DNA from: an uncultured Candidatus Saccharimonas sp. | GTDB lineage: Bacteria > Patescibacteriota > Saccharimonadia > Saccharimonadales > Saccharimonadaceae | DNA: 56,580 nucleotides | NCBI GenBank assembly: GCA_964466345.1 | Contig: CAYXMZ010000001.1 | Coordinates: 1-56,580, forward strand | Direction of reading: 5' to 3' | Shown here: piece after piece, positions 12,923 to 30,417 of the stretch | How the letters are laid out: the number at the start of each line of letters is the position of its first letter | Position numbering within the stretch: position 1 is the stretch's first letter | The notes under the pieces: generated by a model | Database searches by the model: none | Told to the model about the DNA's origin: nothing | The model's input: the letters and a program-made list of their open reading frames with translations, nothing else | Program-made: the position numbers and the translations under genes

Positions 12923-12961
12923 ACCAATAAAAAAGACCAGCTATATTATTTGAATTTTAAA

Positions 12962-12983
12962 ATACCCGCGTAAGAGTGGGTAT
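12962..12983. terminator. weak hairpin between convergent genes (ATACCC-10 nt-GGGTAT), flanked by A and T runs
   Basis: A 6-bp stem at 12962-12967/12978-12983, followed by TTATT on the + strand and preceded by TTTTAAAAT. Confidence 0.4.
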
Positions 12984-13008
12984 TTATTATTAAAGGTCCT
13001 AAAGTAAT

Positions 13009-13281
13009 TTATTTTACTATTACTTGTGTGCGAGGCACGGTTTTGCCAGTAAAGCTTTTTTTGCGGATTTTAGTAAAAGATACAATTCCGTCAACCGCAG
13101 CGTGAATAGTGAAGTTGCGACTGATAAAAGTACCTGGGCCAGCAATTTTTGTAGAACCAGTTTGACGAACTAAAACCTCACCTCGTCGTACTTTTTGACC
13201 ACCAAAACGCTTAACACCTAGTCTTTGACCGGCATTATTGTGAATATTTTTTGATGTACCGCCAGCTTTGACGTGTGACAT
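13009..13281 (-). CDS. rpmA: 50S ribosomal protein L27
   Basis: MSHVKAGGTSKNIHNNAGQRLGVKRFGG matches the L27 N-terminus with no Prp-cleaved extension. A GAGGAG Shine-Dalgarno lies upstream. Confidence 0.96.
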   Translation of the reverse strand: MSHVKAGGTSKNIHNNAGQRLGVKRFGGQKVRRGEVLVRQTGSTKIAGPGTFISRNFTIHAAVDGIVSFTKIRKKSFTGKTVPRTQVIVK

Positions 13282-13326
13282 ATTAACTCCTCAAAATTTA
13301 CAATAATTAACGAAAAATCGAACTCA

Positions 13327-13355
13327 ATTGTACCAAACATCTGTTAATTAGTCAA
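13327..13355 (-). promoter_or_regulatory. putative promoter for rpmA: TTGACT-17-(TGg)TACAAT on the minus strand
   Basis: The reverse complement of 13350-13355 is TTGACT and that of 13327-13332 is TACAAT, with TGg immediately upstream. The leader to ATG 13281 is about 40 nt. Confidence 0.6.
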
Positions 13356-13371
13356 CAGAAGCAGAAATATA

Positions 13372-16725: not shown

Positions 16726-16912
16726 AACTATTGCACAAAAAACAGCCGAGCTCGATGCGATTATCGCTTGGTTTGATAGTGGAGAGTTTGATTTAGAATT
16801 GGCGTTAGATAAATTCAAACAAGCCGAAAAATTAACTTTAGAAATAGAAGAAGACCTTAAGGCCTTAAAGAACGAGATAAATATAGTAAAAAAACGCTTT
16901 GATCAAGACTAA
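16709..16912 (+). CDS. xseB: exodeoxyribonuclease VII small subunit
   Basis: A 67-aa helical protein with LELALDKFKQAEKL. It overlaps xseA and has a GGAGGTG Shine-Dalgarno. Confidence 0.88.
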   Translation: MSDKNKTIAQKTAELDAIIAWFDSGEFDLELALDKFKQAEKLTLEIEEDLKALKNEINIVKKRFDQD

Positions 16913-16935
16913 ATTTCAAGCATAAAGGATTTATC

Positions 16936-16964
16936 TTTACAAGCTAAAGTAGCATAAGTATAAT
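16936..16964 (+). promoter_or_regulatory. putative promoter TTTACA-17-TATAAT, 6 nt upstream of ATG 16971 (leaderless layout)
   Basis: TTTACA at 16936-16941 and TATAAT at 16959-16964. Confidence 0.55.
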
Positions 16965-16970
16965 GGCGCT

Positions 16971-21211: not shown

Positions 21212-21222
21212 TAAATTATGTC

Positions 21223-21251
21223 TTGATTGAGATCTTTACCTCTGCTATAAT
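21223..21251 (+). promoter_or_regulatory. strong putative promoter TTGATT-17-(TGc)TATAAT ending 7 nt before the rpsU ATG
   Basis: TTGATT at 21223-21228, TGc at 21243-21245, TATAAT at 21246-21251 and ATG at 21259. There is no Shine-Dalgarno between them. Confidence 0.65.
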
Positions 21252-21258
21252 ACGATTT

Positions 21259-21474
21259 ATGGTACAAGTAATACGTAAAGACGAACGCGAAGCAAATGAA
21301 AACATTCTTCGCAGATTTAACCGCAAGGTTTTGCAAAGCGGCATTTTGGCTTCGGCTAAAGCCTCGATGCGTAATAGCAAACCAATTTCTAAGGTAGAAC
21401 GACGAAAAAAAGCGATTATTCGCAAAGCTCGTAGGGCCGAAAAATTGGATAGAGCTAGGATGGGAATCAAATAG
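21259..21474 (+). CDS. rpsU: 30S ribosomal protein S21
   Basis: MVQVIRKDEREANENILRRFNRKV aligns with the S21 N-terminus (MP.I.V......ALRRFKR). The track start at 21223 coincides with the -35 box. Confidence 0.9.
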   Translation: MVQVIRKDEREANENILRRFNRKVLQSGILASAKASMRNSKPISKVERRKKAIIRKARRAEKLDRARMGIK

Positions 21475-25793: not shown

Positions 25794-26282
25794 ATGTCAA
25801 AGAATAATATTGGTAATAGTCGTGTCGTAGAATCTCGCGAAGTTAGCGATGGGCTGGCAATTCGTCGTCGTCGTGAAGCACCAGATGGTACTAGATTTAC
25901 TACTTATGAGAGAATTGAGCGACCAAACTTGGCGGTTGTCAAAAAAGATGGTGTGCGTGAACTTTTTGATAGAGACAAATTAACTATTGCTATAAAGCGT
26001 TCTGTCGGTAAATTTTTTGTGTCAGAAGTTGAAATCGATGAAATGGTTAATGATATAGAGGATGCTATATATGATATCGGTGAATTAGAAATTACCTCTA
26101 AACAGATTGGCGAGAAAGTACTAGGTGAACTATTAAAACGTAATGAAGTAGCATATGTACGCTTTGCTAGTGTTTTTCATCAATTCAAAACACTTAACGA
26201 TTTTGTAAAAATTTTGGAAAAGACGCTCAAACACAAAGACGAAGTGAGTAAAAATGCGAGTCGTAGTAGTATACAAAGATAA
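25794..26282 (+). CDS. nrdR: NrdR-family transcriptional repressor homologue lacking the Zn-ribbon cysteines
   Basis: RRRRE..RFTTYE and ATP-cone segments (VVKKDGVRELFDRDKL, VAYVRFASVF) align with NrdR. The protein contains no cysteine at all. Confidence 0.8.
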   Translation: MSKNNIGNSRVVESREVSDGLAIRRRREAPDGTRFTTYERIERPNLAVVKKDGVRELFDRDKLTIAIKRSVGKFFVSEVEIDEMVNDIEDAIYDIGELEITSKQIGEKVLGELLKRNEVAYVRFASVFHQFKTLNDFVKILEKTLKHKDEVSKNASRSSIQR

Positions 26283-26514
26283 AACTGACTATGCACGTAT
26301 CGTTGAAGAGTTTTTGCACGACTTCAAACGCCAGACAGGGCATGATTTAGAAGTAATAAACCCGGAAGAACGTCAAAACTTACAATTTTGTGAAGCTTAC
26401 GATATTTTAAGATACCCGACCATATTAGCTATTAGTGATGATGGTCGCTTGCAAAATTCTTGGGTTGATTTGCCATTACCAACAATCAATGAAATCAGTT
26501 ATTACATACAATAA
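26254..26514 (+). CDS. small thioredoxin-fold-like protein without a CxxC motif (NrdH/glutaredoxin-like topology)
   Basis: 86 aa. MRVVVVYKDKTDYARIVEEFL lines up with the beta1-CxxC-alpha1 region of NrdH/Grx but reads TDYA. It overlaps nrdR by 29 nt. The fold call comes from pattern only. Confidence 0.4.
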   Translation: MRVVVVYKDKTDYARIVEEFLHDFKRQTGHDLEVINPEERQNLQFCEAYDILRYPTILAISDDGRLQNSWVDLPLPTINEISYYIQ

Positions 26515-26634
26515 ATATCTTAGGGCGTTTTTGGGTATCTGGTAGTCATGTTGAGTTTGTGCGACAGTTTATTGTTGTCGTACTTTATATTTTAAGTTTT
26601 AGATTTTTAGCGCTTTCTTTTTTGATATTATAGC

Positions 26635-26663
26635 TTGTCTTGTTGGTAGTTTTGAAATATAAT
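26635..26663 (+). promoter_or_regulatory. putative promoter of the ileS leader (TTGTCT-17-TATAAT)
   Basis: TTGTCT at 26635-26640 and TATAAT at 26658-26663. The predicted transcription start is near 26670, giving a leader of about 225 nt. Confidence 0.5.
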
Positions 26664-26669
26664 TACACC

Positions 26670-26895
26670 AAGACACTTCACCTCGGTGGATTAGTGGCTA
26701 TCAACCACGAACGTCAGTGAATAGAACGGCTCTGTTATGGAACTTAGTAGATTTCACCGTGAACGCTACGACAAAGCGAGCAATTAAGAGCTAAAAGAAT
26801 CACTTCTTTTGGAAGTCAGATGGTAACTCCCGAAAACTACGGGATCTGATGTTCGAAAGAAGTGGTTTTATTTTAAAAAAAAGGAGTTATAAACA
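26670..26895 (+). promoter_or_regulatory. structured ileS 5' leader, candidate tRNA-Ile-responsive T-box-like riboswitch
   Basis: Hairpin GUGG/CCAC with loop CUAUCAA (AUC at 26700-26702). Bulged helix UCAGA[UGGUAACU]CCCG-loop-CGGG-A-UCUGA at 26816-26849. Outer stem CACUUCUUU/AAAGAAGUG followed by a U-run (26801-26874). UAACUCC at 26824-26830 is complementary to the Shine-Dalgarno region GGAGUUA at 26883-26889. Confidence 0.45.
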
Positions 26896-29766
26896 ATGAA
26901 GTTCAAGTCAGGCACTCGTCGTAAACCAGTTGAATACGAAAAAGACCTTGTTGCATATTGGAAACAAAACGACACTTTTCATAAGTCAATCGACAATCGT
27001 TCAGCCGATAATCGTTTTGTTTTTTATGATGGGCCACCGTTTATTACTGGAACGCCTCATCATGGTACATTGCTTTCAAGTATTATCAAAGATGCTATTC
27101 CGCGTTATCAAACTATGAAAGGCAAACGCGTTGATCGCCGTTGGGGTTGGGATTGCCATGGATTACCGGCTGAGAATTTTGTTGAAAAAAAGCTTGGAAT
27201 TACAGATCGTCGCGACATCGGAACTAAAATAAATTTGGCTGATTATATTAATACAGCTCGCGAAAGTATGATTCAAACAGGTAATTTGTGGGAGGAAACT
27301 ATCGAGCGAGTAGGTCGTTGGGTTGATTTTACTGGTGCTTACAAAACGATGGACAAAGATTTTATGGAGTCGGTTTGGTGGGCATTTAAAACTTTGTACG
27401 ACAAAGGCAAAATATACGAAGGCGATCGTGTACTTTTGTACGATACCTCTTGGGCAACGCCACTATCAAAAAGTGAAGTATCTATGGACTCGGAGGCTTA
27501 TGTTGAAGTAACTGATCCAAGTTTGTATGTGAAGTTTAAAATAGTTGGCGAGGATAATTATTTGCTAGCTTGGACAACAACACCCTGGACTTTGCCGGCC
27601 AACACGGCACTAGCTATTAATAGTGAAATAAAATATTCACAAATTGAAGTTGGCGAACAAAAGTTAATTTTGGCTACAGATACTATTGAGCGAGTTATGG
27701 TTGACGAAAAAGGTCAAGCCCTTGAATACAAAATGATAAAAGATATTTCAGCTGATGAATTATTAAGCAAAACCTACGAACCGTTATTCGGTGATAGAGG
27801 AGAGAATGCTCACAAAATTTGGTCGGCAGATTTTGTTTCAACCGATTCTGGTACGGGCGTTGTTCACATTGCGCCGGCCTATGGTGAAGACGATTTTGCA
27901 TTAGCGAAAAAGAACAATATACCGGTGATTCATACGATTGACGACTATGGTATCTTCACAGAAACTGAATGGCAAGGTGACGAAATATGGCAAGCGAACA
28001 AAATAATTGCCAAGAAGTTATTAAGTCGTGGCGTTGCATGGAAAATTGAATATACTTTACATGAATATCCGCACAATCCACGTAACGGTAAACGGTTAAT
28101 TTACCGAGCTCATCCGAGTTGGTTTATGGATATTGACGAACAACGTAGCGAGATGATTGCTCAAAATGCTGAGATTTATTGGTTCCCGGAACATATAAAA
28201 CACGGACGATTTGAAAAAAATATAGAGCAGGCACCTGATTGGAACCTTAGTCGCGATCGATTTTGGGCGACAGCTATGCCAGTTTGGAAGGGCGTGGACA
28301 AAGACGGTCGAGAATACACAAAAGTAATTGGTAGTTATGCTGAGCTAAAAGAACTTAGTGGTGTGGAATTAGAGGATTATCATCGTCCTTGGGTTGATGA
28401 TATTACTTTTGAAATAGACGGAGTTAAATACCAGCGTATCGATAAAGTGCTTGATTGTTGGTTCGAATCGGGCAGTATGCCGTTTGCGCAATTTCATTAT
28501 CCATTTGAGAATGTTGAAAAATTTGAGCAAAATTTCCCAGGCGATTTCATCGTTGAATACGTGGGTCAAGTTCGCGCTTGGTTCTACTACGTACATGCTG
28601 TAGGTGTTGGTCTGTTCGGGCGTAATGCTTTTAAAAACGTCATAGTTACGGGTAATATAATGGGCGAAGATGGCCGTAAAATGAGCAAAAGCTACGGCAA
28701 CTTTACCGATCCGAACGAATTGATGGATATATATGGTGCTGATAGCTTGCGATTCTTGATGCTGTCGAGTCCTCTGACTAATGGTGAAGATTTTGTGCTA
28801 AAAGATAAAGAAGTCGGTGATGTCGCACGAAAACTATCGATGATTTGGAATATGTACGACTTTTTCACCATGTATGCCGAAGTTGACGGTTGGGAGTTTA
28901 ACGGTGAACTCAAAGACCCTTATGATACACTGCAAAACCCGTTGGATAAATGGATTGTTAGTCGCGTACATCAAGTAAACACAGAAGTTGATGAAGCGTT
29001 GGCTCGTTACGACATACCGGGTGCGACCGATCCTATCTTGCCGTTTATTGATGACGCAAGTAATTGGTATGTTCGTCGTAGTCGCCGTCGTTTTTGGAAA
29101 TCAGACAATGATTCGGATAAAAACAGTGCTTACCAGACCTTGCACTATGTCCTTTCGCAATTAGCGATAATAATGGCACCGTTTACGCCGTTTTTGTCTG
29201 AGGAGCTATACCAAAAGCTAGTTGGCGGTGAAAGTGTGCATTTGTTGGACTGGCCAACCCCAGCCAGTATAAATCACGAGATTATAGAGGAGATGTCAAC
29301 CGTGCGTGAATACGTCAACCAAGGTTTGAGTTTGCGTGCGCAAAACGGGCTCAAGGTTCGCCAGCCTTTAAATAGCGTGACGATTCCGAGCGCTGGTAAT
29401 TTGGTTGATTTTAACTCTATTTTAACTGAGGAATTAAACGTAAAATCAGTTCAGGTCGGTGGAGATTTTGGACTAGATATGAATATTACCACTGAATTAA
29501 AGAGCGAAGGGATTGCTAGAGAAGTAATTCGACATATTCAAAGCGCTCGCAAGAAAGCGGGCTTAAATGTTGATGACAGGATTGGATTATCTCTGATAAC
29601 AGATAATGCCGAAACACAAGAAGCTATAAAAACACATCAAGAAACTATAAAACACGAAACCTTAGCGGTGGAAATATTAGATTCAATTGTTGACGGATAT
29701 GAAGAAAGTGTAAAAATTGAGGAAGCAGAGCTAAAAATTGCCCTACGAAAGAAGAACGAAGTCTGA
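26896..29766 (+). CDS. ileS: isoleucyl-tRNA synthetase, type 2 (eukaryote/actinobacterial-like)
   Basis: YDGPPFITGTPHHGT (HIGH region of the type 2 form), WDCHGLP, KMSKS (GRKMSKSYGN), a CP1 editing domain, and a C-terminus without the type 1 zinc-binding domain. Confidence 0.95.
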   Translation: MKFKSGTRRKPVEYEKDLVAYWKQNDTFHKSIDNRSADNRFVFYDGPPFITGTPHHGTLLSSIIKDAIPRYQTMKGKRVDRRWGWDCHGLPAENFVEKKLGITDRRDIGTKINLADYINTARESMIQTGNLWEETIERVGRWVDFTGAYKTMDKDFMESVWWAFKTLYDKGKIYEGDRVLLYDTSWATPLSKSEVSMDSEAYVEVTDPSLYVKFKIVGEDNYLLAWTTTPWTLPANTALAINSEIKYSQIEVGEQKLILATDTIERVMVDEKGQALEYKMIKDISADELLSKTYEPLFGDRGENAHKIWSADFVSTDSGTGVVHIAPAYGEDDFALAKKNNIPVIHTIDDYGIFTETEWQGDEIWQANKIIAKKLLSRGVAWKIEYTLHEYPHNPRNGKRLIYRAHPSWFMDIDEQRSEMIAQNAEIYWFPEHIKHGRFEKNIEQAPDWNLSRDRFWATAMPVWKGVDKDGREYTKVIGSYAELKELSGVELEDYHRPWVDDITFEIDGVKYQRIDKVLDCWFESGSMPFAQFHYPFENVEKFEQNFPGDFIVEYVGQVRAWFYYVHAVGVGLFGRNAFKNVIVTGNIMGEDGRKMSKSYGNFTDPNELMDIYGADSLRFLMLSSPLTNGEDFVLKDKEVGDVARKLSMIWNMYDFFTMYAEVDGWEFNGELKDPYDTLQNPLDKWIVSRVHQVNTEVDEALARYDIPGATDPILPFIDDASNWYVRRSRRRFWKSDNDSDKNSAYQTLHYVLSQLAIIMAPFTPFLSEELYQKLVGGESVHLLDWPTPASINHEIIEEMSTVREYVNQGLSLRAQNGLKVRQPLNSVTIPSAGNLVDFNSILTEELNVKSVQVGGDFGLDMNITTELKSEGIAREVIRHIQSARKKAGLNVDDRIGLSLITDNAETQEAIKTHQETIKHETLAVEILDSIVDGYEESVKIEEAELKIALRKKNEV

Positions 29767-29826: not shown

Positions 29827-30042
29827 ATGTCGATTTTAAATTATTTAAACCTACAACCAATAGATGACTCGTCAGATGACAGTTTGAACGGTCATAGTTA
29901 TAATGCCGATGAAGATATGGCTTTAGATCAACAAATCAGTGAAGTCGAACTAGACAATTACTGGGACAACGTAGTTGAGGATATCCATAGGGATCCAGAG
30001 TGGTTTAGTTTTGCTGATGAGAACGACGACTCGGCCAAATAA
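29827..30042 (+). CDS. small, extremely acidic protein of unknown function (71 aa)
   Basis: About 20 Asp/Glu against 2 Lys/Arg. It has its own promoter-like element. I recognise no family. Confidence 0.5.
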   Translation: MSILNYLNLQPIDDSSDDSLNGHSYNADEDMALDQQISEVELDNYWDNVVEDIHRDPEWFSFADENDDSAK

Positions 30043-30108: not shown

Positions 30109-30417
30109 ATGAAGAAAGCAGTCATTAGGGTTGGCGGTAAACAGTATTTAGTCGCCGAGAAAGACAGTTTGCTGGTTGATTTACTGCCCGAAGGCACTAA
30201 ACAAATAGAGCCTGAGGTATTGATGATTATTGATGGCGAGGACGTTCAAGTTGGCAAGCCGGTTGTCGAAGGCGCAAAGGTTGTAGCCAAAGTTGTTGAA
30301 GATTTAGTTAAAGGTGAAAAAATACGAGTTATTCGCTATAAAGCAAAGAAACGCGTTCACAAAGAAACTGGTCACCGTCAGAAATATAGTCAGATTGAGA
30401 TAATCTCAATCAAATAA
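30109..30417 (+). CDS. rplU: 50S ribosomal protein L21
   Basis: MKKAVIRVGGKQYLVAEKDSL and RYKAKKRVHKETGHRQKYSQIEI are typical L21 sequences. Confidence 0.95.
   Translation: MKKAVIRVGGKQYLVAEKDSLLVDLLPEGTKQIEPEVLMIIDGEDVQVGKPVVEGAKVVAKVVEDLVKGEKIRVIRYKAKKRVHKETGHRQKYSQIEIISIK

Follow-up and report, generated by a model that had tools for sequence, protein, structure and literature searches.

The closest described relative of the leader reported here, an actinobacterial ileS T-box that acts on translation and carries an ultrashort Stem I, was reportedly presented by Sherwood, Grundy and Henkin in 2015. Structures of actinobacterial ileS T-boxes (6UFG and 6UFM) are listed in PMC7583486, in which the T-box discriminator is given as 5'-RRRxG-Stem III-AA-3', followed by helix A1, a bulge of 7 nucleotides (nt) with UGGN at its 5' edge, and helix A2, and in which the antiterminator by itself, when Stem III is missing, is described as having no appreciable affinity for tRNA. 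The canonical T-box switches by releasing the 3' strands of A1 and A2 from the antiterminator, whereupon they form the 5' strand of the terminator; where the output is transcriptional, fast capture of the tRNA is said to depend on a long Stem I (PMC7583486). For the M. tuberculosis ileS T-box, single-molecule work associated uncharged tRNA with a docked linker and a stacked Stem III, and a charged mimic with a flexible linker and a Stem III positioned away from the antisequestrator (PMC12647780). In this study, we analysed a stretch of 56,580 nt from an uncultured Candidatus Saccharimonas sp. (contig CAYXMZ010000001.1; the whole stretch is referred to as the window), in which the isoleucyl-tRNA synthetase (IleRS) gene ileS is preceded by a structured leader, predicted to extend from approximately 26670 to 26874. 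This leader is likely to be a T-box riboswitch which responds to tRNA-Ile and regulates ileS through attenuation of transcription, and its elements are as follows.

26635-26663 (+): promoter-like TTGTCT-17-TATAAT, from a consensus scan (10/12 matches)
26694-26708 (+): short Stem I of 4 base pairs (bp), GUGG/CCAC (26694-26697/26705-26708), with the 7-nt apical Specifier loop CUAUCAA
26717-26757 (+): Stem II, lower helix GUGAA/UUCAC (26717-26721/26753-26757), apical part variable
26758-26778 (+): Stem IIA/B pseudoknot, with IIA formed by CGU/ACG (26758-26760/26768-26770)
26782-26790 (+): purine-rich linker AAUUAAGAG, ending in AAGAG (26786-26790), which fits the RRRxG purine string
26791-26812 (+): Stem III (ON state), CUAAAAGAA, loop UCAC, UUCUUUUGG
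26815-26850 (+): discriminator core, i.e. A1, the 7-nt T-box bulge and A2
26797-26868 (+): OFF-state terminator hairpin, with a 16-bp lower stem formed by strand Y (26797-26812) and strand Z (26853-26868)
26865-26874 (+): U-run GUUUUAUUUU of an intrinsic terminator
26883-26898 (+): Shine-Dalgarno (SD) sequence GGAG and ileS ATG, from the open reading frame (ORF) list
26896-29766 (+): ileS ORF, 956 amino acids (aa), isoleucyl-tRNA synthetase by Pfam and NCBIfam

To compare the leader with its relatives, the loci of the 80 best matches of the IleRS protein among species-representative genomes (61-72% identity) were used; nearly all of these are labelled Saccharibacteria, Saccharimonadia or Patescibacteria, the rest being uncultured metagenome-assembled genomes. 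A gap of 200-300 nt before ileS is also present in most of them, and a regular-expression screen detected an AUC loop and a UGG bulge motif, 90-160 nt apart, in 55/80 loci. A covariance model (R1) was built on a 28-sequence MAFFT alignment that includes the window leader (alignment A1; the name A1 otherwise denotes the helix). Searched against 716 kb, R1 returned 78 matches of 43-166 bits, exactly one per source, all of them upstream of ileS and on the ileS strand, with no second match in the 56-kb window. The R1 family consists of the window and 77 of the 80 other Saccharibacteria genomes, and one of the three loci without a match has only 547 nt of upstream sequence. The window leader itself scores 149.6 bits, although it is part of the training set of the model.

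The MAFFT alignment was fitted to no structure, while the alignment of all 78 sequences was fitted to the model and is hence biased towards structure. Plain MAFFT alignment of the closest upstream regions displays the invariant blocks GAGYGGCUAUCANCCRCGAA, GAAGAA, AGUAGA, AAnUAAGnGC and GGAUGGUACC as well as the U-run. The ON fold (Stem I, Stem II, IIA, IIB, Stem III, A1 and A2) is 92.2% paired in the MAFFT alignment, with compensatory changes in 26/34 pairs (0/500 shuffles as good), and pairing drops to 29-48% when the partners are slid by 1-3 columns; in the 78-sequence alignment, 97.2% of cells pair. RNAalifold, which was given no input structure, returns Stem I, Stem II (lower and upper helices), IIA, A1, A2 and the enclosing terminator. 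The ensemble of elements in the leader is far beyond chance, as indicated by the R1 score, the covariation in 77 genomes and the fold z (-3.2 for 26668-26900). The original prediction, made from the sequence of the window alone, had located these elements correctly throughout, and its helices are conserved and covarying in the relatives.

When set against the published descriptions of the actinobacterial ileS T-boxes (M. tuberculosis and M. smegmatis), the leader shares with them the gene ileS and specificity for tRNA-Ile, a Specifier in the apical loop of a short Stem I that has no elbow-binding distal platform, an obligatory Stem II domain with an S-turn-like motif and a IIA/B pseudoknot (here read from the sequence), and the succession RRRxG-Stem III-AA, A1, UGGN bulge and A2. 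It differs in that an intrinsic terminator with a U-run (78/78 members) takes the place of the SD sequestrator, in that its alternative helix takes up the 3' strand of Stem III or the purine string and not the 3' strands of A1 and A2, and in its host phylum (Saccharibacteria and not Actinobacteria). With the canonical transcriptional T-boxes (RF00230; B. subtilis tyrS and glyQS) it has in common that it is an aminoacyl-tRNA synthetase leader of the attenuation type, and that the Stem II GAA/AGUA motif, the IIA/B pseudoknot, Stem III and the UGGUACC core can be aligned in relatives. In contrast to these, it has no long Stem I and no clear K-turn, its terminator surrounds the antiterminator where the canonical one is mutually exclusive with A1/A2, and the scores are far below the RF00230 gathering cut-off (0 for the window and 29-37 bits in relatives, as compared to 93 bits). 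Viewed against the T-box features compiled in PMC7583486, the leader displays a Specifier followed by a purine, a 7-nt UGGN bulge, RRRxG-Stem III-AA, and Stem II with IIA/B, while it lacks a long Stem I, a terminator derived from A1/A2, and an RF00230 score at the gathering level.

At the gathering thresholds of Rfam, nothing was detected on the whole window or on the loci of 16 relatives, and at E <= 10 the region 26480-26950 gave no T-box match but noise only (HOLDH at 10.7 bits, ST7-OT4_3). Of the two findings that together had been named as refuting the leader, only the first was obtained: the window was not matched by RF00230 even at E <= 10, but conservation and covariation of the helices are clearly present. 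In 5/8 relatives tested RF00230 did give matches, all sub-threshold. These matches lie exactly on the leader (L015, 32.3 bits, E = 8e-6 in a local search; L025, 36.6 bits; L022, 36.2 bits; L012, 33.0 bits; L017, 28.7 bits). The alignment of L015 to RF00230 is full-length and comprises the Stem II GAA/AGUA motif, IIA with CGUUA, Stem III and an AA-N-GG-UGGUACC core, with 42 nt standing for 87 Stem I positions. The family is, to all appearances, a divergent T-box with a truncated Stem I which goes unrecognised by the curated RF00230 model. TBDB searched whole genomes with its short-Stem-I (class II) model in Actinobacteria only, and otherwise applied the model to sequences that RF00230 had already picked up (PMC7778990); with this scope, TBDB would have missed the family.

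The hairpin GUGG/CCAC had been proposed to present the Ile codon AUC, followed by A, in the manner of a Specifier. In the window, AUC occupies 26700-26702 and is followed by the conserved purine A26703; AUC is retained in 76/78 Specifier loops and AUCA in 72/78. In the MAFFT alignment, pairing of the Stem I helix is complete (100%) and includes compensatory changes; in the 78-sequence alignment, its second pair is CG in 38 and UA in 38 members. This 4-bp hairpin stands in place of a long Stem I with a basal K-turn and a distal double T-loop platform, parts that are missing from the known ultrashort T-boxes as well. Below Stem I, the tandem GA/GA is retained by part of the members only (47/78 and 64/78), and a family-wide K-turn or basal helix under Stem I was rejected as no better than shuffles (5.03 versus 4.92 nt). 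In one subclade (L001, L005-L007, L015 and L025) a GAACAU/AUGUUC helix encloses a short hairpin together with Stem I in a three-way-junction-like arrangement. Many relatives have a short hairpin of variable sequence in the stretch from the predicted transcription start to Stem I (L015 2792-2806 and equivalents), its equivalent in the window (26679-26691) being weak.

The lower helix of Stem II is 98% paired with compensatory changes in 4/4 pairs, and the conserved GAAGAA and AGUAGA blocks, represented in the window by the strands UAGAAC (26722-26727) and AGUAGAU (26746-26752), are S-turn-like by sequence only. A minimum free energy (MFE) fold of the 5' half of the window leader in which GGUGGAU pairs with the 3' strand of Stem II was disregarded, being unsupported by covariation. 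Helix IIA is 97-99% paired. For IIB, the loop CGCU (26764-26767) pairs with AGCG (26775-26778), and this helix covaries sequence by sequence, with CGCU/AGCG in the window and UCGA/UCGA, UCAG/CUGA, ACAG/CUGU, UCGG/CCGA, CAGC/GCUG and CGGC/GCCG elsewhere; since its register shifts, it is only 61% paired in fixed MAFFT columns.

Directly 5' of Stem III, AAGnG is found in nearly all 78 members, and GAA is invariant in the 28-sequence alignment. The hairpin AAAAGAA/UUCUUUU (26793-26799/26804-26810), which had been noted as a competitor of the outer stem, is real and conserved, and corresponds to Stem III. This stem is 89% paired with compensatory changes in 6/9 pairs in the MAFFT alignment, and 93% paired with 8/9 in the 78-sequence alignment, and the AA on its 3' side (26813-26814) is invariant. 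The two helices originally recognised as an antiterminator-like layout, UCAGA/UCUGA (26816-26820/26845-26849) and CCCG/CGGG (26829-26832/26840-26843), could be extended to the 6-bp A1 (GUCAGA/UCUGAU, 26815-26820/26845-26850) and the 5-bp A2 (UCCCG/CGGGA, 26828-26832/26840-26844), which are 100% and 99% paired, respectively, with four compensatory pairs each (MAFFT alignment). The intervening bulge, first delimited as UGGUAACU (26821-26828), is present but was thereby refined to the canonical 7 nt, UGGUAAC (26821-26827). Across the 78 members UGG is invariant at the bulge's 5' edge, adjoining A1; the bulge starts with UGGU in 73/78, and reads UGGUACC in 67/78 and UGGUAAC in 4/78. The fourth bulge base is expected to pair with the discriminator base of the tRNA (A73 in bacterial tRNA-Ile), and is A or C instead of U in 5/78. 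Conservation of both AUC (76/78) and UGGU (73/78), together with the conserved discriminator, supports the proposal of a T-box-type leader with a reduced Stem I, presumptively sensing tRNA-Ile.

Folding of 26668-26900 is dominated by a long hairpin (approximately 26796-26868) that is followed by the U-run, and this enclosing terminator hairpin is the MFE fold of the window. The outer stem CACUUCUUU/AAAGAAGUG (26801-26809/26856-26864) followed by GUUUUAUUUU, which had been regarded as a terminator in the original prediction, is present and conserved, and extends to 16 bp. Its strand Y is composed of the loop and the 3' strand of Stem III, its strand Z adjoins the U-run, and the stem in the OFF state encloses an intact A1, bulge and A2. 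In the MAFFT alignment, 86% pairing is seen for the Y:Z helix, 12/16 pairs being compensatory, and the OFF fold as a whole is 90.4% paired with 32/41 pairs compensatory. The MFE structures of 78/78 members retain A1, bulge and A2 and add an enclosing lower stem (median 15 bp, minimum 7). A canonical terminator made from the 3' strands of A1/A2 and downstream sequence was also considered and proved weak (median -4.8 kcal/mol), while the median energies of the OFF and ON folds are -32.6 and -20.4 kcal/mol, OFF being approximately 10 kcal/mol more stable. A1 and A2 are thus predicted to persist in both folds, and the terminator does not use their 3' strands. The suspected departure from the canonical exclusivity of terminator and antiterminator is accordingly a property of the whole family, with an enclosing stem in 78/78. 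A run of at least four U residues follows the 3' end of A1 at a distance of 9-19 nt (median 15) in all 78 members, indicating that the output is transcription termination.

As strand Y is common to Stem III (X:Y, where X denotes its partner in Stem III) and to the terminator stem (Y:Z), the two helices are mutually exclusive. For example, column 137 in Y alternates between C and U, and columns 128 in X and 198 in Z both alternate between G and A. A plain terminator needs no X:Y complementarity, yet X:Y covaries, which is the signature of a switch. In 67 members, the Stem III segment is at least 20 nt long, the lower stem measures 11-19 bp and the purine string is left free. Seven members (L030, L033, L038, L039, L044, L073 and L076) have no Stem III, and in these the lower stem of 7-8 bp pairs directly with the purine string UAAGYYCC; the remaining four are intermediate between the two forms. 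Whether the terminator takes up Stem III or the purine string, what it competes with is in each case the segment immediately 5' of A1.

From these alternative pairings we infer tRNA binding, the direction of the response and a latch step, the latter being proposed by analogy with the reported need for Stem III (PMC7583486) and the docked and flexible linker states (PMC12647780). The Specifier loop and Stem II would capture tRNA-Ile(GAU). If this tRNA is uncharged, its 3' ACCA would pair with UGGU and stack on A1, and the purine string and Stem III would dock on the resulting duplex; docking would lock Y in Stem III such that Z cannot invade, the polymerase would pass the U-run, and ileS would be transcribed. 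With a charged tRNA, or with none, the latch at Stem III would be loose: starting at the base of this stem, Z would displace X, and transcription would end at the long hairpin. The same logic may hold for the seven members without Stem III, where the 7-8 bp terminator stem would pair with the purine string. It is unlikely, in our estimation, that attenuation proceeds without a Stem III/purine latch, i.e. that tRNA bound to the bulge blocks zipping of the lower stem or that the Stem I/II domain holds Y. The intact A1, bulge and A2 in both folds would fit such a scheme, as would the members without Stem III, but it leaves the covariation of X:Y unaccounted for, given that a plain terminator requires only Y:Z, and it does not explain why in the Stem III-less members the terminator pairs with the purine string, so that the competitor is always an element known to dock on the tRNA-bulge duplex.

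The original prediction had favoured translational control on account of the complementarity between UAACUCC (26824-26830) and GGAGUUA (26883-26889), which is indeed present in the sequence. In such a translational T-box, UAACUCC would cover the SD of ileS except when the T-box element is held by uncharged tRNA-Ile, in the manner of the actinobacterial ileS leaders. The perfect 7-nt match is rare for this exact pair of segments (8/20000 shuffles), and the short Stem I is of the kind described so far for translational T-boxes (PMC7583486), but a 7-nt match of the SD to any part of the leader is common, being reached in 819/2000 shuffles (41%). Furthermore, the pairing is not conserved: among 57 relatives with ileS directly after the leader, the best Watson-Crick run between bulge/A2 and the SD averages 3.56 nt as opposed to 3.36 nt in shuffled sequences, and the 7-nt run is reached by the window alone. 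The pairing is thus specific to the window and lends no support to translational control, and the terminator stem is followed by a U-run in 78/78. In addition, at 19 loci other genes precede ileS, so that its SD cannot be the target there. We consider translational control quite improbable. That the leader is not a tRNA sensor at all but a protein-binding or RNA-stability element, e.g. for IleRS autoregulation through a tRNA-like leader with a leaky constitutive terminator, would agree with the lack of an Rfam match in the window, but is hardly credible in view of the conservation of AUC, the invariant UGG with which the 7-nt bulge begins, and the RRRxG-Stem III-AA arrangement with the sub-threshold RF00230 alignments, which reproduce the T-box design point by point.

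Several observations nevertheless weigh against tRNA-Ile-responsive attenuation as set out above. RF00230 does not detect the leader of the window itself, and since a long Stem I, said to be required for rapid tRNA capture (PMC7583486), is missing, the kinetics may be a problem. The seven members lacking Stem III imply that Stem III itself cannot be the universal competitor. The window also departs from the family consensus in having UA instead of GA below Stem I, and AAC instead of the consensus ACC at the 3' side of its bulge (UGGUAAC). Five of the 78 members have UGGA or UGGC in place of UGGU (UGGAACC in L026, L045, L072 and L079; UGGCACC in L068). Finally, the steric sensor of the 3'-aminoacyl group that has been described as a G-U wobble at the first pair of A2 occurs in that form in only 33/78 members, the others including UA in 18, GC in 16 and AU in 10 (U26828-A26844 in the window).

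Full-text searches of the available literature found no publication that joins T-boxes with Saccharibacteria, Patescibacteria or the candidate phyla radiation. The leader is a T-box in its sensing parts, while for its expression-platform topology and its phylum no published description was found. We are evenly divided as to whether it should be regarded as a distinct T-box class, in which A1/A2 never unfold and which acts co-transcriptionally without a long Stem I, and as the first riboswitch class for Saccharibacteria/Patescibacteria. Saccharibacteria are epibiotic, genome-reduced bacteria that depend on their host for amino acids. T-box regulation would be extended to the candidate phyla radiation, and the family would be a counter-example to the rule that transcriptional T-boxes need a long Stem I with an elbow platform and that an ultrashort Stem I goes with translational control. 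It would also present a natural separation of functions, in which the site for the tRNA 3' end (A1, bulge and A2) is kept in both states and only the Stem III/purine latch is exchanged, and with this design the idea derived from M. tuberculosis ileS, that charging is transduced via docking of the linker and Stem III, would become directly testable. For genome annotation, a new covariance model could be started from the alignment of the 78 members.

With regard to the start of the leader, the promoter-like site predicts transcription from near 26670. In 51/78 loci, the 90 nt preceding the leader contain a promoter match of at least 9/12, as compared to 6/78 coding controls, and the -10 element in relatives mostly ends 25-35 nt before Stem I, a spacing that fits a leader starting shortly before Stem I. 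The window is part of a bacterial chromosome, with a G+C content of approximately 38% and a strong GC skew, and the genes around the leader are arranged as follows.

Gene order near the leader: adk, map, ftsA, ftsZ, nrdR, 86-aa ORF, 381-nt gap, ileS
26254-26514: 86-aa ORF without a Pfam or NCBIfam match

The downstream gene had been named as a type 2 ileS, and this identification holds: the 956-aa ORF scores 806.7 bits with TIGR00392, above its cut-off, and its product closely resembles MupA/MupB, type 2 enzymes resistant to mupirocin, and carries a C-terminal DUF5915 domain. The gap preceding it had been called the only long one in the window, which is roughly correct; ORFs of at least 100 aa are separated by gaps of 245-450 nt elsewhere too (12923-13371, 16726-16970 and 21212-21473), but each of these gaps holds a plausible 67-90-aa ORF, and none has an Rfam match at gathering thresholds. 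Directly after the 86-aa ORF and upstream of the ileS promoter, a terminator-like hairpin (26559-26583; 10 bp followed by TTTATATTTT) closes the upstream operon, and the 381-nt gap thus comprises the end of the nrdR operon and the ileS leader. Between ileS and rplU (30109-30417) there is a 71-aa ORF (29827-30042) without a Pfam match. ARAGORN detected no tRNA gene in the window and no tRNA-Ile gene in the 60 loci of relatives that were scanned.

Small unrelated genes are located between the T-box terminator and ileS in 19/78 loci, among them L007 (2441-3004), L020 (2465-3004), L052 (2445-3017), L062 (2426-3004), L037 (2423-3001), L016 (2390-3004) and L056 (1694-3004), and also L063, L069, L027, L055, L019, L021, L014, L008, L049 and L065. 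At least six of these genes encode GNAT acetyltransferases of 179-204 aa, the others having CAP or cupin domains or no Pfam match. By virtue of their position between the terminator and ileS, these genes would be co-regulated by the charging of tRNA-Ile. A link between GNAT and IleRS exists elsewhere, as indicated by the NCBIfam model NF040702, which describes IleRS fused to an N-acetyltransferase domain.

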